This document shows positions 61-8,929 of a stretch of DNA of 8,929 nucleotides, piece by piece. The DNA is from Dictyostelium discoideum (taxonomy: Eukaryota): contig CH709161.1 of assembly GCA_000004695.1 (NCBI GenBank), positions 1 to 8,929 on the forward strand, in the 5' to 3' direction. Below the pieces are notes generated by a model. The model ran no database searches. It worked only from the letters and a program-made list of their open reading frames with translations, and was not told the DNA's origin. A program made the position numbers and the translations under genes. The first letter of the stretch is position 1. Each line of letters starts with the position of its first letter.

Positions 61-399
61 ATGAATTCATCTGCAAATTTTATAGAACCAAATGGTAATG
101 TACCTGATTTTGACCAATCACCAATCCAAAGAAGAACAAACAATAATATTTCTATCGGAGATGAATCATTTAATAATTTGTCAATAGGTAATGTATTAGG
201 AAATGCAAATGTTCCAAACCCAATGGAAAACCAGAGAATAATAATTAGAAGAGTTCCAAGGCCAACTGTTCCACCAATCCAAGAAACAGTGCAAATAGCC
301 ACAAACCCACGTGTAACATACATATTGGAATACGAAAGTCTTCAGAAAGTTTGTCAAAGTAAATACTATTCAGATGGCGATGTATGTTACCAGATTAAT

Positions 400-431
<32 letters not shown>

Positions 432-732
432 CTTACTTAATTTAAATAAATAGGTTTCAAATTTCTTTATTACTGGAATAATTAAACAAGCAGGTGGTAG
501 TAACGAAGATTGTACCAGTCAAAATATTTTTGCAAGGTTAAAGTTTGTTGACTCTTGTAAAACAGGTGAAGAGAAACACTGGTACCCAGATTCAGTTCCT
601 TTAATAAAGAGATTAATTTCAATATTAAATGATTTTAGTAGTAAATTTGACTCTAAGGCTAAAATGAGAAAAGATGCACAAGAAGCTTTTCAATTTCCTC
701 ATTCTGCACTTTACTTAAATTCTTCCCAATAA
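61..732 (+). CDS. Two-exon gene for a hypothetical 199-aa protein. Exon 1 is 61-381, the intron is 382-453 (GTATGT...poly(A)26...AAATAG) and exon 2 is 454-732, ending in a TAA stop.
   Basis: ATG at 61 sits in an aaaATG context. The frame stays open to 453 and ends on a TAG, which is a rare stop in Dictyostelium. Directly after that TAG the same frame stays open for 92 more codons (454-729) with no ATG, and then ends with TAA. The codon usage is coding-like (ggt, cca, caa, aat). An in-phase GTATGT at 382 and an AG at 452-453 define a 72-nt, >90% AT intron that contains the 26-nt A tract. An AATAAA motif overlaps the stop. Confidence 0.6.
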
Positions 733-983
733 AAGTTTTAAAATAATTTTTAAAATTTAAAAATAAATTTTATTATTAAAAAATAATATATCTGTGTATT
801 TTATTTTTCACATAAAATTTTATTTCATACTATAGTTTTAAAATAATTTTTAAATTTTTTTTATTTATTTTTGTAGCATTATTAATAAGGTGCTTTTAAA
901 TGTAAATATTAATAAACTTTAAAATTCAATTTTTAAGGAGCTTTAAAATGTAATTATTAATATAATTTTTAATCATATTTTTA

Positions 984-1175
984 AGTAATTTTAAAGAGCA
1001 TTATAAAGTTAATTTTAAAGGGCATTTTAAACTTAATTTTAAAGAGAATTATAAAGGTAATTTTAAAGGTCATTTTAAAGGTAATTTTCAAGGTCATTTT
1101 AAAGTTAATTTTAAAGGTGATTTTAAAGGTAATTTTAAAGGTGATTTTAAAGGTGATTTTAAAGGTGATTTAAAA
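984..1175. repeat. Phased 12-bp minisatellite with 16 core units of consensus g-g-t-[a/g/c]-a-t-t-t-t-a-a-a. Diverged flanking copies extend to roughly 889-1262.
   Basis: The units gtaattttaaa/gagcattataaa/gttaattttaaa/gggcattttaaa...ggtgattttaaa x3/ggtgatttaaaa can be read directly as a 12-nt register. Related gtgcttttaaa and gagctttaaaa motifs lie upstream and ttgcttttaaa and gttgctttaaa downstream. Confidence 0.9.
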
Positions 1176-1470
1176 AATTGCTTTTAAATTAATTTTTAAG
1201 TGACTTTTTTATAGGACTTTAAATCCACTTTTAATTTAATTTAAAGTTGCTTTAAAGGTGTAATTTTCATCGCTGTGATAATATAAAACCCAAGGCAACT
1301 GAAACACTTATTTATGATTAATTAATAAAAATAATAATAATAGAATTCAATTGCCACTGAAACAAATAAATAAAGAATTAAAATTAATTTGGTTATCTTT
1401 TTAGTTTTTTTTTTTTTAATTTTCATAATTTTTTTTTTTTTTAATTTTCATAAAATTAAAAAGCATCACT

Positions 1471-1519
1471 AAAGCCAATTTAAAGCAAATTTAAATTGAA
1501 TTTGCTTTAAATTGGCTTT
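1471..1519. repeat. Inverted repeat (hairpin) of 49 bp. The arms are perfect 21-bp sequences (aaagccaatttaaagcaaatt and aatttgctttaaattggcttt) separated by a 7-nt spacer (taaattg).
   Basis: The arms are exact reverse complements of each other. The hairpin lies 20 bp upstream of a short GC-rich island (1540-1615) inside otherwise ~90% AT DNA. Confidence 0.85.
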
Positions 1520-1779
1520 AAAAATGCATTTTTCTTCGCTTTGTAACGTAAAAATTAGCATTTTAATCGCTTTAAAAGCGAGGTCCGGATTTCGAAGCCG
1601 TTATTTAACGGATAAATATTTTAAATTTTTTTTTTGAATTTTTGTAAACTATATTAGGAATAAAAATGAAAATAAAAATAAAAAAAAAATATTCTAAAAG
1701 AATTACAAACCTTTTTAAATGGCAATGTTCTTTTTTTTTATTGGCAATGGTTTATATATATATATATATTTTTTTTTTT

Positions 1780-1805
1780 AGATTTTCTAGATTTTCTAGA
1801 TTTTA
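1780..1805. repeat. Tandem 9-bp repeat agattttct in about 2.9 copies. It contains repeated TTCTAGA motifs.
   Basis: The sequence reads agattttct agattttct agatttta. A (TA)8 microsatellite lies at 1754-1769. Confidence 0.7.
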
Positions 1806-2494
1806 CATATTATTCTTTATTGGACCTTTCTGTGAATAATTGAATTAATTCTGAACAAAAAAAGTTATTTTTAAAAAGATAGAGTTACCCCGATCAATCT
1901 TTTCGCGAATAATTTTTCATTTTTCATATTATTTTTTTTTTAAATTTTTTTCATTTATTCACAATTAAAATAAAAAATATAATAAATAAATAAATAAAAT
2001 AAATAGTATTGACAAAAAAATCAAAAATACCGGGACTCAAATAAAGGATTTATTTTTTATATGTAGTTTTTTTTTTTTTAAGTTCTTTTTTTTTTTTCAA
2101 GTTTATTTTATTTTTATATTTTCTTTATTTCTCTATAAATACAACCAAATTTAAATATACGATAGGTCTTAACAAATATTGTTTAATATTATTTAAAATT
2201 TTTGTTTTAAATAATGTGTTTTATTAAAAAAAAAAAAAAAAAAAACATATGAAAAGTGAAAAATTTTTCAAAAATAAAAAATTTTTTTTCGAAATAACTG
2301 GATTTATTCCGGGATAACTCGATCTTTTTCAAAATAACTTTATATAGAATTAATTCAATTATCCACTGATAGGTTCATTTTAATAATGAATTAATTCTAA
2401 TTTTTTTTTTTTTTTTTATAATTATTATTCGTATTTCTATAATTAAAAACATGAATTTTATTATTCTTATTATATAATTAATTTTTTAATGATT

Positions 2495-3106
2495 TCATAT
2501 TTTATTTTTGTTATTAATACTGTTTAATTTTATACGACTTGAATGAAAAGTGTTTTGTGAATTATAAATTTTTTTTTTTATTTTTCTTTTTTTTTCAATT
2601 ATTTTAATTTTTTTCAATTTTTTAAAATATATATTTTTTTTTTTTTGGCTAATAATTCCTTTCTTGAAAATTTTAACTTTTTTTGGTTTTTGAGGGGAGT
2701 CATGTTTTAGGGATCTTAGGATGATCTGTTTGTTATGTTGAATTTTGATTGGAGACAACATGGGTACAATGACATTATCTGGATGGTTTGAAAGTGTTTG
2801 AGTGACAATTGCTTGTGTATTTGATGGTGTCTGAGTGACAATTGCTGGTGGATTTGATGGTGCTTGAATAACAATGGTTGGTGTATATGATGGTGCTTGA
2901 GTAACAATGGTTGGTGGATTTGATGGTGCTATGGTAACAATGGTTGGTGGATTTGATGGTGTTTGAGAGACAATATCTGGTGGATTTAAAGTCTGAACAA
3001 AAGATGATGATGTGTTTGAAGTTGGTGGTTGTTGCAAAGCATTTGTCAAATGATGAATATTGGATATATGTTCAATAGATGACACAAGTTGACGAGCAAC
3101 ATTCAA
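2495..3106 (-). CDS. Open frame rich in Pro/Thr/Ser/Gln repeats (…QTPSNPPTIVTIAPSNPPTIVTQAPSYTPTIVIQAPSNPPAIVTQTPSN…). The coding-like part is about 2700-3106. The ~200-nt AT-rich K-rich tail down to 2495 is doubtful.
   Basis: The frame runs about 135 codons with Dictyostelium-like codons (cca, caa, att, gtt) across the 33-bp repeats. The first codon is TTG, not ATG. No in-frame ATG occurs before residue ~112. There is no AG acceptor between the upstream in-frame TAA (3131-3133) and the ORF. The minus strand here is T-poor, so all three frames are open and ORF length alone is weak evidence. Confidence 0.35.
   Translation of the reverse strand: MNVARQLVSSIEHISNIHHLTNALQQPPTSNTSSSFVQTLNPPDIVSQTPSNPPTIVTIAPSNPPTIVTQAPSYTPTIVIQAPSNPPAIVTQTPSNTQAIVTQTLSNHPDNVIVPMLSPIKIQHNKQIILRSLKHDSPQKPKKVKIFKKGIISQKKKNIYFKKLKKIKIIEKKRKIKKKIYNSQNTFHSSRIKLNSINNKNKI
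2800..2995 (-). repeat. A 33-bp tandem repeat in about 5.5 copies. On the minus strand the unit is caccatcaaatccaccaaccattgttac(t/c)ca(a/g)g(c/a), which encodes PSNPPTIVTQA-like units.
   Basis: The plus-strand units tgagtgacaattgc(t)tgtgtatttgatggtgtc, tgagtgacaattgctggtggatttgatggtgct, tgaataacaatggttggtgtatatgatggtgct, tgagtaacaatggttggtggatttgatggtgct and atggtaacaatggttggtggatttgatggtgtt are read directly in a 33-nt register. Confidence 0.85.
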
Positions 3107-3174
3107 AGAAGGATTACAGGTAACAGATTTTTAAATAACATATTGGGGTATAGTAAGTAAACCTAATTCTTTCC

Positions 3175-3384
3175 TTAATTAACTTTTAAAGGATCATCTG
3201 GAATTGCGATTGCATTAAAATTGTAATTAGTAAGATCATACCCAATTTTCTTTGTAAAAGATAATAATATCTCAACAACTTTTCTATGGTTTGATAGGTA
3301 CAAATTTGATGTAAAAGAAGTTAAATCGTTTGAATCATTTGAATCATTTGAATCATCTAAATCATTGTACTGTGGTAAAATCAT
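3175..3384 (-). CDS. Short ORF of 69 aa, MILPQYNDLDDSNDSNDSNDLTSF…HRKVVEILLSFTKKIGYDL… It is hypothetical and may be a continuation of the same decayed element.
   Basis: It has an ATG start and (DSN)3 low complexity. HRKVVEILLS…KK weakly resembles the start of a chromodomain (..R.VEKIL…KG…YLVKW), but the remaining positions do not fit. It lies on the same strand as 3470-3706, 85 nt downstream, in another frame. Confidence 0.25.
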   Translation of the reverse strand: MILPQYNDLDDSNDSNDSNDLTSFTSNLYLSNHRKVVEILLSFTKKIGYDLTNYNFNAIAIPDDPLKVN

Positions 3385-3706: not shown

Positions 3707-4199
3707 TTTTCTTCTATATTTACATGAAATCCATTATCTAATGTAGCTGTTTGAAATAATAATAATAACTGCATTTGCATTATTTGACCCTTCAATTATT
3801 ATTGTTAAAATTTCGATTTTACAAAATTATAATTTAAATGTTAGAGTAAGTTTTTTTTTTAAAAAAAAAAAAAATAATAATAATTAATATAAATAACAAA
3901 AAAAAAAAAAAAAAAAAGAAATAATAAAAAGTTATCTAATTTTCATTTTTTATTTTTTTTTTATAATTTCAAAAAAAAAAAAAAAAGAGATGGGAAACAA
4001 TTTATAAAAAAAATTTTTCCGATTGCTTGACAAGGTGACATGTCGATATCTCTGTGTTTTCTATAATTATATACTTCCAAGGCTAATTCTAAATAAGAGC
4101 AAATTGTTTGAGTTTTACATATATTTTCACTGTCATTACATTAGGTAAATAAATGATAGTAATTTAAAAAATATAGGGTGTATATTAGAAGAGGGTACT

Positions 4200-6343
4200 T
4201 ACTCTTCCTTATGAAAAAGTAGTCCAATACCACGCCAAAAACCTAGCTGCTCAAAGGCTACAATCCGCCCAGCAAGTCAACCTCCATACCACCAAAAGAC
4301 TATTTGAAGATACTGACGATCTCACTCAATCCCTCAAGCAAACATTAACAAAGAAGCGTAAGGAGCTAGACCAAGCACTCAACCACACCCAAAAAGAACT
4401 ACAGGAGCTAAGAAAATCACATGATAGTACGCAGAAAATGGCACAAAAGATCACTTAGAGATGTACTCTTAATGAAGAACTCGCCAAAGAGCTCCTTAAC
4501 TAAACCAAGCACAATAAATATACCATCGAAAGGATTATACCCGCTAGGCTAGATGCGCCAGCAACGCCTCAAAGAGGTTACTCAACAAATAAAACACGCA
4601 CAAGCAAAACAGATCGAAGTAACAAAGGGAATTCAAGAATGATCCCAGCAAATAAAACAGCTTCAAGCCCAAATTGATGGAATAAACAAGCAATACCAGC
4701 CTGCTAGTCAAACTAGGCCGCTAGAAGAAGTGGAGCGTGAGCAGCAAGCACTTGAAGCGAAACTACAGCAACTCCTCAACGATTTTAGGACAAAAAAAAC
4801 ACAGCTTGAGCAAGCCCAGAACCTAGCTCAAAAGGCCCAAGCAGATTTAGGGCAAGAAATAGCGCAAGAAAAAGCCAAACAAGAGCAATTGGAGGCGATC
4901 GAGAAAGAGCTAAAGGAACGCATTGAAGAAGGTAAAGTACTCAATGAGCAGGAACAAGAAGCTTGATTGATCAACAGCGCACCCCCAGCTGTTCATAGAT
5001 CTCAAAGCGCCCGAAGTACCGCATTGACTGAAAAAAAGAAAAGCTCTCTTGCATCGAAGAAAAGACGATCCGAGGCAGCTAGCCCATATGCGGCAACAGC
5101 AGCACCTTAACCTCAAAGAGAGGATGATCGCGCTTCAAAATGCACAAACCATGCGTGAGCAAGCAGCTAGAAGAAAGGTAGAGTTTACTAACTCTAACGC
5201 TTCTTGCTGTAAAACAAGAAGTACACCAATCGCAGCAAACATGAGAGCAAGAAAACAAACGCATCATCGAAGAGAATATTCAGGGTATAGAAGCGCTCAC
5301 CAAAGAGCCCCACCAGGATAAAGAAAGGGAGAGCAGAAGAGACCAAGAAGATGTAAAAAATACAAAGAGAAAACAGGAGTGGGAAAACAGGGCATGGTAT
5401 GTAAATTATGGGATTGGGTCAAAGAAAATCCCATTACCGCAACTATTGTAGGGATTCTGGCTGTGGGTGCATTGGTGTGTCTGGTTTCTTATGTGGCCCT
5501 ACCATTATTAAAAAGCAGCATCGCGTCAACGGGAGCTGGTGGCTTTTTTTGGTGGTTGTTTTCAAACAAAACCCGGCTTATCTGTCTTTGGCTCATTTGC
5601 TGGTAGATGGTTAAACAATAATCTACAACGGATTAATAATTGGGGCAATGGAAAAGGCTGGAAAACAAATGATGAGCTAAAAGCACCTTCCAAGAAAGAA
5701 TTTTAGCATCTAAAAACCAACTTGGATAGGAACTCCAAGGGATACAACGTGATCTGCAAGAGGCGAAAAGAAAGTAAATAGAGGAACGTGAAAAGGAAGC
5801 AGAAAAACCCGAGCAAGAGCAGGAAGAAGTTTCAGGGTAATAGTTAAACATCCTCGCTCAGCAATTCAATGCTACTTCTATGCAGCATGAGCCAATGCAA
5901 AACGTGACTAATCTGACCAAGCAGGCACAGGAATTGCTAAAACAATGGGATACAAATACGATGACCCTTCTCTATTCATGCAAAGCAGTGTTTTGCTAGA
6001 TCAGATGGATCAGCAGATAGCGCAAGTGGAGGAAGCTAAAGAAGAGGTCTTTTCTGGTGAATTTAAAGGGAATTTACCAAATCAGAAAAGCGGCCCCGCA
6101 ATCTCAACTCGATACACTCATACAAGCCAAAGAGCAGCTATATCAAAGATCATTCGAGATACGCAACAAGAAGCCATGGTATTTGAGCAAGACTTTGAAA
6201 AAATAACAAAGAAGCTCCATGATTTCTTATCCAGTCATGAGTACGTCCAAGAAGAATTTAAACCAACTACAACTGAGCAGCATGAACCTATCCTCACTAG
6301 ACCTACCATCGACTTGACAAACTCCCTCTCCCTAAGGCTTTAG
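4200..6343 (+). pseudogene. Decayed coding sequence of 2.1 kb with coiled-coil character (rich in Q/E/K/A/L). It is a degenerate gene or a retroelement ORF1/gag-like remnant. It includes a hydrophobic segment at 5379-5606 that looks like a transmembrane region, and one uninterrupted 132-codon stretch at 5945-6343.
   Basis: GC content rises abruptly at about 4195. The plus strand is A/C-rich and T-poor, so chance stops should be rare, yet TAG, TAA and TGA interrupt every plus frame about every 20-40 codons between 4200 and 4730. Surviving segments read as heptad-like text, for example MEREQQALEAKLQQLLNDFRTKKTQLEQAQNLAQKAQADLGQEIAQEKAKQEQLEAIEKELKERIEEGK. Internal modules such as 'caagcact.a.c…aactacag.a.ct' are repeated. 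The codons differ from the neighbouring host gene (ctg, gcc, ggg). Confidence 0.5.
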
Positions 6344-6498
6344 AAGAAACAATTATGCTGCTTGCCGAAAAGATGAGCTATAATGGTTTAAAATTGGATT
6401 TTAAACAAGCCAAGCAATTTGAATTTCCCAAATATTTAAGATAATTTTTTAGAATGTTCTAGAACATGAGAAGAATAAAAAATTTTCGAAAGAAAAGT

Positions 6499-6601
6499 AA
6501 AAATTTCGAACCGGCACAATGACGCGATCATTGCGCAAGGTCGAAAAACTGAAAAATTCCGAACCGACACTATGCACAAAGTTGTGAAGGGTCGAAAACT
6601 C
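6499..6601. repeat. Tandem duplication of a ~50-bp block inside the ITR-like region. Copy 1 (6499-6551) is aaaaatttcgaaccggcacaatgacgcgatcattgcgcaaggtcgaaaaactg. Copy 2 (6552-6601) is aaaaattccgaaccgacactatgcacaaagttgtgaagggtcgaaaactc.
   Basis: The two copies are about 70% identical and directly adjacent. Each begins with aaaa(a)tt(t/c)cgaaccg and ends with ggtcgaaaa(a)ct. Copy 1 contains a small hairpin, cacaatga-cgcga-tcattgcg. Confidence 0.8.
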
Positions 6602-6699
6602 TTATTTTTTTGAGTTTTGCGAAATTTTTAAGAAAATAAAAACGTATAAATAGTGGCACTAAAAACTAAAAACAATTTGATTTATGGAATTCCGACTAA

Positions 6700-6715
6700 G
6701 GGCGGGTGGGATGGG
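6700..6715 (+). other. G-quadruplex motif GGGcGGGtGGGatGGG at the inner edge of the ITR-like region. It lies 5 bp from a (TA)9 tract (6721-6738) and 45 bp from the YR stop.
   Basis: Four G3 runs with 1-2-nt loops are read directly. The motif is conspicuous in DNA that is otherwise about 80% AT. Confidence 0.7.
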
Positions 6716-6760
6716 ACTAATATATATATATATATTTAATATAAAATATAATTTAATAAA

Positions 6761-7680
6761 TTAAATGATTCTTTTATCGTAGAAGGTATCTACAGTATCA
6801 TTTGATTTCCAACGACCCATCTTCTTGACAACATGGAACGGAACGTTATTGGACAACAGCAGAGAAGCCATAGCGGAACGGGTAGAGTGAGATTTGAACT
6901 TGACAATATCAATGCCTGACTTTGAGAGCGTTGATAATACAATTGAGTTAATATCATTAACTTGGAGCGGTTCACCCTCATTCTTAATAAAGACAGAGTC
7001 ACCCGAATGGGGCTTTCTTCTTCCTTTTGAGGTTCTAAGGTATGTTGCAAGGTGGCGAACAGGGCATACTTGAGAGTTTGTATCATCTATCGAAGTTAAT
7101 TCTAAGATTGAAACAACACCACTTCTTTGTTCTTTAGCATTAATAACTGGACCTTTGATTGAGTCAGGAGTAATAATGAGACCTTTGAACGACCACTTCA
7201 CCAAGTCTGATGATCTTGGTAAACCAAACATTTTACAGAGTACAAGTGTCTTGTTTAATAGTGCAGTGTATGTGTACTTAGGGATGACTTTTATAGTAGA
7301 TAAGTGCTTGAATACTTGGTTTGCATCCCATATCTCTTTATACTTTGCTGATGAAGGACGCAACTTGTGAATACCAGTCATAATTCTTGTGATGAATGGA
7401 TCATTAACAATATCAGTTTGATTCTTAAGGAGTAACAACTGATTCAACATAGATCGATGACCATTAATTGTTGAGAAGGCTAACGGAGGTTGTGCTTGAA
7501 CAGATGTGTAAGATAATCCATGAAAACAACTAAGGTAATGTTTGCTGGATTCAAAGAGTTTAAAGTACAGAAATTGCGGAATCTTGTATAACTGGAGCTA
7601 TATACTTTGAGAGTTGAAGGTTCCCATGACTTCATTAACAGCTCAGCTGTTTTTGTATTTGTTGTACGAGCGAAGGACAT
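6761..7680 (-). CDS. Tyrosine recombinase of about 305 aa (DIRS/Ngaro/Cre-like). The N-terminal core-binding-like domain is MSFARTTNTKTAELLMKSWEPSTLKVYSSSYTRFRNFCTLNSLNPANITLVVFMDYLTHLFKHNL… and the catalytic domain is …AFSTINGHRSMLNQLL……GLPRSSDLVKW……KFKSHSTRSAMASLLLSNNVPFHVVKKMGRWKSNDTVDTFYDKRII. The two halves are in different frames, consistent with a 1-nt frameshift near 7485.
   Basis: The ATG is at 7680-7678. The N-terminal signature SW…STLKVY…RF.NFC…P…V.F..YL.HLF is present. The catalytic residues follow in order: Arg (LPRSSDL), HxxR (HSTR), W in the position of the second His (GRWKS) and the Tyr nucleophile (TFYDKR). Frame A stops at TAG 7480-7482. Frame B is open from at least 7560 and carries the rest. 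A single-nucleotide insertion at about 7484-7486 would fuse them as …THLFKHNL.LAFSTINGHRS…. Confidence 0.85.
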
Positions 7681-8929
7681 TACATGAGATTGGAAAGTTG
7701 AATAATCCCGAGCTTCCAACGTTGTTGAATCTGGATTGGTATCGACTCTACTGATTGTTTGGTCAATACTTCTTGGAATGTTCCCAGTACTTGAGGAAAC
7801 ATGTGGCGATGATGACGAGGAACTTGAGCTTGAATCATCGGATACCAAGTTGCTGATCTCCAGATTGGGAAGATCAGTATTATAGAAACCTTCTTCGAAC
7901 TGGATGAGTTCATCTTCTCCAGGATAGAAGGCAAAAGAATGGGTGGTGGAAAGGCCAAACATTGCTTCCATTGACTCTAATCGAGGTGGAGTGCATTCAT
8001 TCTGATTGTTGAGTAGTTGTTCGTTTGATGGTTGAGGTGAGATGCGAACAGATCCATCTGTATTTGACCGAAGTGAAGTTGGATGCGATTGAACACTTCC
8101 TTCTTCAGTTCCCAGTTGTAACTCTTGATTACTCTGGACGATGATTTGTGATTCATCTCTGAAAGACGGCTGAGGTGGTCGGCTTTTACATTGAATCCTG
8201 GAATATGCTCTCCAATCAAGTTCACTTTCTTTTTGAGGCATTGTTTCCATAGTTGTTCGAACAGAACTGAGAGATCTTGTATTTGACCACCCTGCCGATT
8301 GATGTAAGAGAGAGTGGCAGTGTTGTCGGTTTGAATCTTCAGCTTGCAGTTGTTCAGTTTCCGACATAGCGCTTGATAGGCCATTAGCAGTGCGAGCATT
8401 TCTCGACGATTTGATGACATGTTTGATTGAGTTGTTGACCACTGGAATGACCAAGTTTTGATTACCTTGTTTCCTTTCTTGAGAGTGGCACCTGCACCCG
8501 ATTCCGAGGCATCGGTTGTAAGAACATAGTCGTAACTTGGAAACAGACTGATTTCTTTTCCATTCCATTGGTTTAGAACTGTTAACCAATGTGAAATCTC
8601 TGACTTGACCTCTTGAGGAATGGGGGACGATTGATCCCAATCTCCATTGGCTAGAGTCAGACACTGAGAGTGAAACTTGTTTGTTCGACGAGTGTAAAGT
8701 CTGAATGGGATGACTGCATCTTTCAGTGCAATTAGCTTTCCTTTTAAACCAGCAAGCTTTCTTGGGGAGCAACAATCTAGTTTTAAAAAGTTTCTTATTT
8801 CTTTGATGACACTTTTCTTCTTTTCTTTGGGAACAAGAAGCTTCATTGATACCGAATCGATTTGTAATCCGAGAAACGTAATTGATTGAGTTGGTTCGAG
8901 AACGCTCTTTTCTAGGTTTAACTTGAGTA
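7680..8929 (-). CDS. Retroelement pol fragment, incomplete at the 5' end. It contains the RT C-terminal/thumb region (…ITFLGLQIDSVSMKLLVPKEKKKSVIKEIRNFLKLDCCSPRKLAGLKGKLIALKDAVIP…), RNase H (…VLTTDASESGAGATL…REMLALL…IQTDNTATLSYINRQGG…HIPGFNVKADHLSRL…) and a conserved post-RH segment (…IQMDLFASHLNHQTNNYST…[TAG]SQWKQCLAFPPPILLPSILEKM…ILIFPIWRSATWYP…). An in-frame TAG lies at 7977-7979 and the terminal TAA at 7680-7682.
   Basis: One frame (coordinate mod 3 = 2) is open from the window edge to 7977 and again from 7976 to 7683. The RNase H catalytic motifs D, E, D and H..D are all present in order. The frame extends upstream of the listed Met to 8929, giving LKLNLEKSVLEPTQSITFLGLQIDSVS, which is the RT region just C-terminal to the YxDD box. 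The TAG falls inside the conserved '…D[A/x]…W……AFPP' block. Confidence 0.85.

Follow-up and report, generated by a model that had tools for sequence, protein, structure and literature searches.

The centromeres of Dictyostelium discoideum carry 'non-unique sequences not derived from transposons', and DIRS-1 inserts preferentially into other DIRS copies (Gloeckner and Heidel 2009, PMC2665215). The decayed block described here lies on an unplaced contig of D. discoideum AX4, the entire 8,929 bp of which form the window, that is, the whole stretch of DNA analysed. Like the non-unique sequences, the block is low-copy, duplicated in DIRS/DDT-rich centromere-type DNA and part of no defined transposon. 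Those published motifs are, however, small, lack any evident coding capacity and match the G+C content of their surroundings, whereas the block spans 2.2 kb, once encoded protein and has 42% GC beside an AT-rich flank at ~18%. Despite the likeness between the block and the DIRS-1 copy that it adjoins in G+C, GC3 and genomic compartment, the two share no DNA or protein similarity, and the block lacks RT, RNase H, YR, LTR and internal complementary region (ICR).

Coiled coils are common in ORF1 and gag products, and a protein that combines heptad repeats with a membrane-spanning helix may be likened to those of the class-I fusion or env-like type. With non-LTR ORF1 and retroviral gag the block shares a coiled-coil-like region, but the knuckle, RRM and pol domain are absent from it, and it is cut off at the 3' side. 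The Inc proteins and coiled-coil effectors of Chlamydiae and Legionella pair a long coiled coil with a hydrophobic membrane segment, an arrangement to which the block may be likened by analogy, although no homology was found. The bilobed domain of the Inc type consists of two transmembrane helices joined by a short loop, and the block encodes one clear helix followed by a segment that reaches only ~1.1 on the Kyte–Doolittle scale; its hydrophobic part is located mid-protein and not near the N terminus, and it is dead and resides on a eukaryotic chromosome. The block also resembles mis-annotated unitary or duplicated pseudogenes in that three gene models have been placed on ORFs surviving in a frameshifted, stop-ridden frame, but, unlike them, it has no known functional parent gene.

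The limits of the block, which the original prediction had drawn at 4200-6343, were moved to 4217/4218 and 6416 by comparison with other loci (Table 1); its convergent orientation relative to DIRS-1 stands as predicted. The block is a decayed coding sequence. On its plus strand, open stretches that are 60 or more codons long add up to 782 codons, compared with 242 on average and 567 at most in 500 mononucleotide shuffles. Coding on the minus strand was rejected, as the open content there (351) lies under the shuffle mean (463). The best frame path contains 10 in-frame stops (4 TGA, 3 TAG and 3 TAA) and ~8 frame switches, in keeping with the earlier description of a long-dead coding text riddled with all three stop codons. 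Short introns were considered as a source of the frame switches and discarded: the one GT...TACTAAC...AG candidate, at 5178-5218 (41 nt), fails to restore the best frame, AT-rich segments are absent, and the composition profile displays no AT-rich introns or interruptions anywhere in the block. Past 6343, 38 codons are open in another frame, too few to tell a 3'UTR from coding sequence, and the TAG at 6341 may represent the original stop codon, in which case the fragment would be truncated at its 5' end only. Apart from a 16-nt chance pair, 4100-6500 contains neither terminal nor inverted repeats; internal repeats are likewise missing from the block, and nothing in it matches the DIRS part of the window.

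Table 1. Features of the window and the coordinates assigned to them.
Feature	Position	Strand	Basis or remark
DDT/Tdd-type DNA transposon fragment, broken inside integrase (rve) gene; left boundary	4017..4217	-	92.5% identical to L001 12115-12312
Block, decayed internal piece of protein-coding sequence, ~733 codons	4218..6416	+	Three-frame translation; ORF-length excess over shuffles; comparison with L001, L002 and L004
Frame path, first half	A 4219-4548, B 4553-4969, C 4971-5192, A 5197-5388	+	
Frame path, second half	C 5391-5540, A 5545-5678, C 5679-5950, B 5954-6340, possibly A 6301-6416	+	
Q/E/K/L-rich helical, coiled-coil-like N-terminal part	4219..5388	+	Heptad periodicity
DDB_G0294276, 68-codon ORF, judged spurious	5408..5614	+	Out of frame over transmembrane region
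Predicted transmembrane helix ITATIVGILAVGALVCLVSYVALPLL	5433..5510	+	Kyte–Doolittle 19-residue mean up to 2.64
132-codon open stretch, AX4 hypothetical protein DDB_G0294278; last intact piece of dead ORF	5945..6343	+	ORF
DIRS-1 right LTR without outermost 71 nt; right boundary	6417..6693	-	LTR copies in L002, L004 and L006
DIRS-1 ICR (R' part), perfect complement of missing LTR end	6718..6766	-	49 nt, 100%, against consensus outer LTR end
DIRS-1 body: tyrosine recombinase (one frameshift near 7455-7480) and RNase H part; runs off contig end	6761..8929	-	ORFs

The base composition and codon usage of the block are not those of Dictyostelium genes. Its plus strand contains 38.4% A, 21.3% C, 20.8% G and 19.6% T (GC 42.1%), with a GC content of 17.7% in the left flank and 39.8% in the DIRS part of the window; the T-poor strand and the elevated GC had been recognized from the outset. 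GC3 along the block is 0.41, within the range of DIRS-1 ORFs (0.33-0.43) and unlike most host- or DDT-type ORFs (0.12-0.19), a value that speaks against the block having been a host gene; two of the host-type ORFs sampled are exceptions at 0.26 and 0.38. Leucine is encoded by CTC in 27% and by TTA in 15% of cases, compared with 0% and 60% in a neighbouring host-type gene. Correlations of RSCU were uninformative (r 0.25-0.47 for DIRS-like and host-like sequences alike), leaving GC3 as the only discriminating measure. Codon-position bias along the frame path is strong, with 12% T at the first position, an effect exaggerated by the choice of a path that avoids stops, and 45% A and 13% G at the second. 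The observed/expected ratio is 0.59 for CpG and 0.75 for TpA, so the block has no TpA excess.

The reconstructed protein is rich in Q (12.6%), L (10.5%), E (10.5%), K (9.9%) and A (7.3%). A hydrophobic periodicity of 3.5 residues is strong at residues 29-112 (z 6.8-6.9) and weaker outside them (2-2.7 at residues 113-224), so that the heptad-like Q/E/K/A/L text of the original prediction holds best, with z ~7, over this first segment. The reading frame of the N-terminal part stays open as far as the left breakpoint, so this part is 5'-truncated. Within the hydrophobic stretch previously proposed as a transmembrane helix at 5379-5606, we find one strong predicted helix, directly followed at 5511-5620 by a Gly-rich and weakly hydrophobic segment whose Kyte–Doolittle value is only ~1.1. 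In the second copy of the block (locus L004, see below) the helix and the subsequent GAGGFFGGCFQ share one frame, and the frameshift in the T-run at 5544 is thus private to the window. The clean stretch of 132 codons near the 3' end was likewise recovered as described; the AlphaFold model of this ORF consists of two helices plus disorder (pLDDT 66, pTM 0.28) and is too weak for a fold search.

Three AX4 gene models, DDB_G0294276, DDB_G0294278 (UniProt Q54AQ7) and DDB_G0267196 (Q55H67), have been drawn on the block or its second copy. That they might be real short genes is suggested by their presence in the AX4 gene set, two of the three with counterparts in the second assembly. Against this, DDB_G0294278 is broken in L004 by a TAG that aligns with window 5959 and by a frameshifting insertion of 23 bp, which the L004 annotation bridges with an 'intron'; DDB_G0267196 owes its existence solely to a CGA in place of the TGA of the window and terminates where 2 bp are deleted; the frame of DDB_G0294276 differs from that in which the transmembrane helix is evidently read; and all three have non-host codon usage. 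We consider genuine genes here extremely improbable; the three models are chance-surviving ORFs and annotation artefacts. None of four DDB_G gene identifiers is mentioned in the literature, and P0001 corresponds to DDB_G0294266 with 100% identity.

Both edges of the block coincide with damaged transposons. On the left, the related gene in L001 (Integrase_H2C2, rve) runs on past the junction point into sequence unrelated to the block. On the right, eight LTR copies in L002, together with others in L004 and L006, begin to match at 6417/6418, and all of them possess a further conserved 71 nt that the window is missing. As the right LTR lacks these outer 71 nt, the junction is a breakpoint of a deletion or rearrangement and not a YR integration site. 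The ICR, arranged as described for DIRS-1 (PMC7192593), is intact next to the truncated LTR, which again makes the right junction a breakpoint. Further inward, the DIRS-1 body is 96-98% identical to copies in L002, L003 and L006. An inverted terminal repeat had been expected to start ~50 bp past the last stop; in fact, homology to DIRS-1 begins 74 nt past the TAG at 6341, at position 6417. Judged from these alignments, neither junction appears to be an integration junction or the end of a mobile element.

A second copy of the block is found in another assembly at L004 8197-10433, with 97.1% identity to that in the window. The two copies agree in their left junction and in no less than 2.7 kb of the flank beyond it, and the L004 contig ends 2 nt short of the right-hand junction. 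These shared flanks indicate that the copies are segmental duplicates and not independent insertions, the block having been duplicated as part of a larger segment and not transposed. It is absent from four further loci that total ~77 kb (L001, L002, L003 and L006), and an exact orthologue of the window in the second assembly was not encountered among L001, L003 and L006, which contain paralogous pieces only. A 123-aa ORF of L004 is identical to the AX4 chromosome-1 gene DDB_G0267196, and the chromosome-1 copy probably lies in the centromeric region.

Most lesions are common to both copies, and each copy has private ones as well. The window alone has a TGA at 4640 (where L004 reads CGA), one additional T at 5544 and a TAA at 5775 (where L004 reads TAC); confined to L004 are two deletions, of 2 bp and 1 bp, the stops TAA and TAG and the 23-bp insertion. 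Altogether the copies differ by 34 substitutions and 5 indels; of the A/T alleles, 13 fall to one copy and 14 to the other. A decay dominated by C>T changes, as formerly suggested, finds no support in what has happened since the duplication (18 transitions against 16 transversions), and the five differing stops (CGA/TGA, TGG/TAG, TAC/TAA, CAA/TAA and TAC/TAG) do not derive from C>T alone. The same proportion of transversions (16 of 34) and the lack of excess TpA led us to reject RIP-like or deamination-driven hypermutation. Stops at positions where CAG or CAA would be expected had been read as compatible with C>T decay, but composition alone predicts them: Q codons supply 27% of the one-step nonsense changes available in the block, and C>T accounts for 28% of such changes, A>T for 25% and G>T for 24%.

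Searches for relatives of the block returned next to nothing. Its C-terminal 132 aa match only their own cluster among 1.84 billion representatives, metagenomes included (HMMER), and none of the proteins annotated as transposon-derived in Dictyostelium assemblies; by these comparisons the C terminus appears to be an orphan. In Pfam, no piece of the block reached the threshold of any family, with sub-threshold coiled-coil noise only, and RT, RNase H, IN, YR, gag, zinc-knuckle and RRM domains were not detected. NCBIfam, PHROGs and PDB contained nothing similar, and plasmids and phages gave no match by tblastn. Scans of 185,579 bacterial species genomes and of viral and metagenome collections, which detect near-identical peptide words (8-mers) only, were equally negative. 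A word-indexed comparison of the 755-aa reconstruction with 5.8 billion proteins gave no hit, a negative without weight, as it also missed DDB_G0294278, which is 100% identical to part of the query; the coiled-coil query probably filled the list of 8000 candidates. Within D. discoideum, ~95 kb of repeat clusters yielded no nucleotide or translated similarity to DIRS-1 or any other transposon, and tblastx against the full-length DIRS-1 copies in L002 and L006 found nothing. An rRNA or rDNA-palindrome origin, prompted by the rDNA scars at Dictyostelium centromeres, was set aside, as the window contains no Rfam family.

The block is probably a dead orphan relic, bounded by breakpoints, duplicated and without function, that derives from the interior of a gene whose product was a coiled-coil membrane protein. 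The source gene would have comprised at least 730 codons, and its product would have joined a long coiled coil, a single transmembrane helix and a C-terminal part that was helical. The fragment lies trapped in a centromere-type transposon mosaic, between a broken DDT/Tdd-type element on the left and an LTR-truncated DIRS-1 on the right, and was already disabled when no less than 5 kb of DNA around it became duplicated in the AX4 lineage. Of the two copies, one lies on chromosome 1 near the DIRS cluster and the other on the unplaced contig; each has gone on decaying independently with an unremarkable substitution spectrum, and the block would now do nothing. On composition alone, the source was probably no host gene but a foreign or selfish sequence, whether a transferred gene or an element now extinct. 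A more specific form of this idea, which we consider unlikely, makes the block the sole surviving trace of a foreign gene captured at a centromeric repeat break, be it an effector-like coiled-coil membrane protein of an unsequenced intracellular symbiont or virus or the membrane or env-like protein of an extinct retroelement family with the unusual composition of DIRS-1. Horizontal acquisition proper, in which an effector or inclusion-membrane-type gene of an intracellular bacterium, or a gene of a large DNA virus, integrated into the centromeric repeats and then decayed, would account for the non-host composition (42% GC, GC3 0.41), for the succession of coiled coil, transmembrane helix with Gly-rich second hydrophobic segment and further helices, for a C-terminal 132 aa without a dictyostelid paralogue and for the illegitimate junctions at both ends, which would be expected of DNA captured at a break. 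Yet DIRS-1 has the same composition, which consequently does not point outside the genome; the collections searched hold no bacterial, plasmid, phage or viral relative, the 132-aa piece is without a match among the 1.84 billion representatives even with metagenomes included, and the second hydrophobic segment is so weak that a bilobed hairpin is not established. We therefore regard such an acquisition as rather unlikely.

Also doubtful is the origin that the original prediction favoured, an older retroelement (DIRS-like, or of a family with a coiled-coil gag/ORF1 or env-like membrane protein) that later served as a target for DIRS-1. The block does sit inside a DIRS cluster, and DIRS-1 prefers DIRS targets (PMC2665215); its GC3 is in the DIRS-1 range and unlike that of most host- or DDT-type ORFs, the 5' side of the fragment is truncated, and its architecture may be compared with class-I fusion and env-like proteins and with the coiled coils of ORF1 and gag. 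However, the sampled loci reveal no similarity to the gag, RT or YR of DIRS-1 or to other elements, and only two copies, with shared flanks; RT, RNase H, IN, YR and zinc knuckle are absent, as are repeats in the form of LTR, ITR or ICR; the C-terminal 132 aa match no annotated Dictyostelium transposon protein; and the truncation of the DIRS-1 LTR at the junction is incompatible with a simple insertion. The other origin first proposed, a dead host gene, here an ordinary Dictyostelium gene whose product was a membrane protein with a coiled coil and over which the transposon cluster of the centromere spread, we hold to be very unlikely. Coiled-coil proteins are abundant in Dictyostelium, and the low copy number in the sampled loci and the lack of element-like termini would suit a host gene, but the choice of codons differs greatly from the host pattern (GC3 0.41, non-host leucine codons), AT-biased mutation in the host would be expected to raise, not lower, AT during decay, AT-rich introns are absent, and the C-terminal 132 aa have no paralogue among the 1.84 billion representatives.

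As a dead orphan relic, the block is ordinary genomic debris. The three 'hypothetical protein' entries of AX4 that derive from it are pieces of one dead frame and are to be flagged as pseudogene fragments. If a donor were identified, the block would document the capture of foreign DNA in a Dictyostelium centromere, although no finding here requires that. In the repetitive centromeric mosaic of DIRS and DDT elements, it can be used as a low-copy marker of segmental duplication and of illegitimate junctions.

The decayed coding stretch at 4218-6416 of the window (the block) contains 38.4% A, 21.3% C, 20.8% G and 19.6% T, with a GC content of 42.1% versus 17.7% in its left flank. Open stretches of at least 60 codons on its plus strand total 782 codons, whereas 500 shuffled trials averaged 242 and never exceeded 567; the minus strand shows no enrichment in long open stretches in the shuffle comparison. 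Read across three frames, the block gives one continuous protein-like text with about eight frame hops and ten stops (four TGA, three TAG and three TAA). Q, L, E and K abound in the conceptual product, which displays a 3.5-residue hydrophobic periodicity (z ≈7 at residues 29-112, weaker beyond), as well as a single strong predicted transmembrane helix (Kyte–Doolittle mean up to 2.64). For the 132-aa ORF, AlphaFold returns two helices plus disorder. The original prediction thus described the block correctly, apart from its coordinates and its remark on the ITR, and the 132-codon ORF is real. The frame is open at both block junctions, and the TAG at 6341 may be a true stop codon, as just 38 open codons follow.

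The limits of the block are not those first proposed (4200-6343). The transposon match between the window and L001, a comparison locus from a repeat cluster, ends at ~4217, where L001 runs on into unrelated sequence that is the remainder of its integrase gene; the start of the block, 4217/4218, therefore falls within a transposon gene rather than at the end of a transposon. On the right, all LTR copies of the tyrosine-recombinase retrotransposon DIRS-1 in L002, L004 and L006 begin to match the window at 6417/6418 and extend outward by another conserved 71 nt that the window lacks, which corrects the earlier placement of an ITR about 50 bp after the last stop. A 49-nt perfect complement of the missing LTR end lies within the element's internal complementary region (ICR), a defining feature of DIRS-1 (PMC7192593). 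Because the outer 71 nt are missing and the complementary ICR is intact, this DIRS-1 copy is terminally truncated, and its junction with the block is a breakpoint rather than an integration junction. By the published replication model, the copy (6417-6766: truncated right LTR, intact ICR) could not regenerate its own ends. It is itself defective, since a frameshift splits its tyrosine-recombinase frame between '...FMDYLTHLFKHNL' and 'PLAFSTINGHRSMLNQ...'.

The window is a complete unplaced AX4 contig, a transposon mosaic. Its two segments collinear with L001 (assembly GCA_054883475.1) correspond to a locus bearing the integrase gene (Integrase_H2C2/rve) of a DDT/Tdd-type DNA transposon, and the insertion between them also occurs in L004, where other sequence flanks it on the left. 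DDB_G0294266, labelled a 'host' gene, has ~20 paralogues over D. discoideum assemblies, a multi-copy family with some members beside integrase genes (window 61-732, L001 10001-10975), and may be transposon-associated rather than an ordinary host gene.

Features of the window and their coordinates
Feature	Position	Strand	Content or evidence
Spliced gene DDB_G0294266	61-381 + 454-732		199-aa translation, 100% identical to D. discoideum AX4 protein
Tandem array of 12-nt unit ATTTTAAAGGTA	977-1175		16.7 copies, 80% matches; 3' of DDB_G0294266
Segments collinear with L001	1-1277 + 3191-4217		
1.9-kb insertion	1278-3190		Relative to L001 11505/11506
MITE-like inverted arms	1907-1950 and 2226-2269		Within the insertion
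ORF in the insertion	2495-3106	minus	33-nt repeats (2779-2987) encode PSNPPTIVTQA-type units
Predicted transmembrane helix	5433-5510	plus	
132-codon ORF	5945-6343	plus	Confirmed as real
DIRS-1 copy	6417 to contig end	minus	LTR, ICR, tyrosine recombinase, RNase H
ICR complement of LTR end	6718-6766		
DIRS-1 frameshift	7455-7480	minus	

A full HMMER search with the C-terminal 132 aa, the only part of the block covered by an exhaustive protein search, matched solely its own cluster among 1.84 billion representatives, in which the window ORF itself, AX4 DDB_G0294278, is joined by ACTFIT_005021 of assembly GCA_054883475.1. The contig with ACTFIT_005021 (L004, L005) contains the entire block at 97.1% identity (34 substitutions, 5 indels), with a left junction identical to the window's and ~2.7 kb of homologous left flank, and stops 2 nt short of the DIRS junction. 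A 123-aa ORF of this copy has an identical counterpart on the 4.92-Mb chromosome 1 of AX4, DDB_G0267196, a gene whose number is near those of chromosome 1 DIRS recombinase genes; together with the window copy, this identity indicates that AX4 carries at least two copies. The block was not found in four further repeat-cluster loci (L001, L002, L003 and L006, ~77 kb in all). The two copies stem from segmental duplication, not transposition. L004 has 16 nt (8181-8197) in place of 181 nt of the DDT/Tdd-type fragment in the window (4019-4199), yet retains the final 18 nt of that fragment adjoining the block, so one copy has undergone a secondary deletion.

The two copies have most of their stops and frameshifts in common, so the sequence was already dead by the time of the duplication. 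Lesions private to the window are a TGA at 4640 and a TAA at 5775, for which L004 reads CGA and TAC, and one additional T in a run at 5544; those private to L004 are 2-bp and 1-bp deletions, a 23-bp insertion and stops TAA and TAG (CAA and TAC in the window). Once the copies are merged, the frame runs without a break from the transmembrane helix on through '...GAGGFFGGCFQTKPGLSVFGSFAG...', confirming the frame assignment. The substitution spectrum between copies is unremarkable: 18 transitions and 16 transversions, with A/T alleles split 13 to 14, a pattern inconsistent with RIP-like or deamination-driven decay. Stops do sit at Gln positions, as originally noted, but the C>T decay with which they were called compatible is not upheld by these substitutions for the time since duplication, and such stops are expected from composition: of all single-step changes that can create a stop, 27% fall in Q codons, and by type C>T provides 28%, close to A>T with 25% and G>T with 24%.

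As to origin, the original prediction offered a dead host gene or an older nested element that DIRS-1 had targeted. Codon usage in the block is near unbiased (GC3 0.41, CAG 36% of Gln codons, CTC the top Leu codon), similar to DIRS-1 ORFs (GC3 0.33-0.43) and unlike the sampled host-type and DDT-type ORFs, mostly 0.12-0.19 with two outliers of 0.26 and 0.38; the host-type gene next to it uses TTA for 60% of its Leu codons and never CTC. This usage argues against a dead host gene, and AT-biased decay would not be expected to increase G+C. The 0.38 outlier, high for a Dictyostelium locus, is a 382-aa ORF (L001 1203-2351, minus strand) with no Pfam family and no relation to the block by tblastx. 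The nested-element reading is unsupported, as the LTR is truncated, the copies share flanks and an element signature is absent. Apart from composition, nothing ties the block to DIRS-1 or any other element: it lacks repeats, whether terminal or internal, belongs to no Rfam family, and stays below threshold in Pfam, NCBIfam, PHROGs and PDB. The source could conceivably be a gene acquired horizontally or an element now extinct; tblastn against 7.3 Gb of plasmids and 2.3 Gb of phages gave no match, and scans of bacterial/archaeal, viral and metagenome collections for near-identical peptide words gave no relative. A word-indexed search with the 755-aa coiled-coil reconstruction gave no hit but is void, having missed a database protein that shares 132 aa of the query at 100% identity; negatives from this search are not trustworthy for low-complexity queries.

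The feature originally predicted is real and largely well described, its interpretation partly right. On the best-supported reading, the block is the relic of an orphan pseudogene whose composition is not that of the host; two illegitimate junctions within centromere-type transposon DNA bound it, it was carried along as a passenger when a bigger segment was duplicated, and its decay continues. It is best to treat the AX4 models DDB_G0294276, DDB_G0294278 and DDB_G0267196 as ORF artefacts. Published work puts the share of D. discoideum centromeres that cannot be identified as transposon at ~14% and describes duplication of non-transposon sequences in them (PMC2665215); the block is an example of this fraction, its own traits being that it is coding-derived and G+C-rich. 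Biologically, it is ordinary debris.
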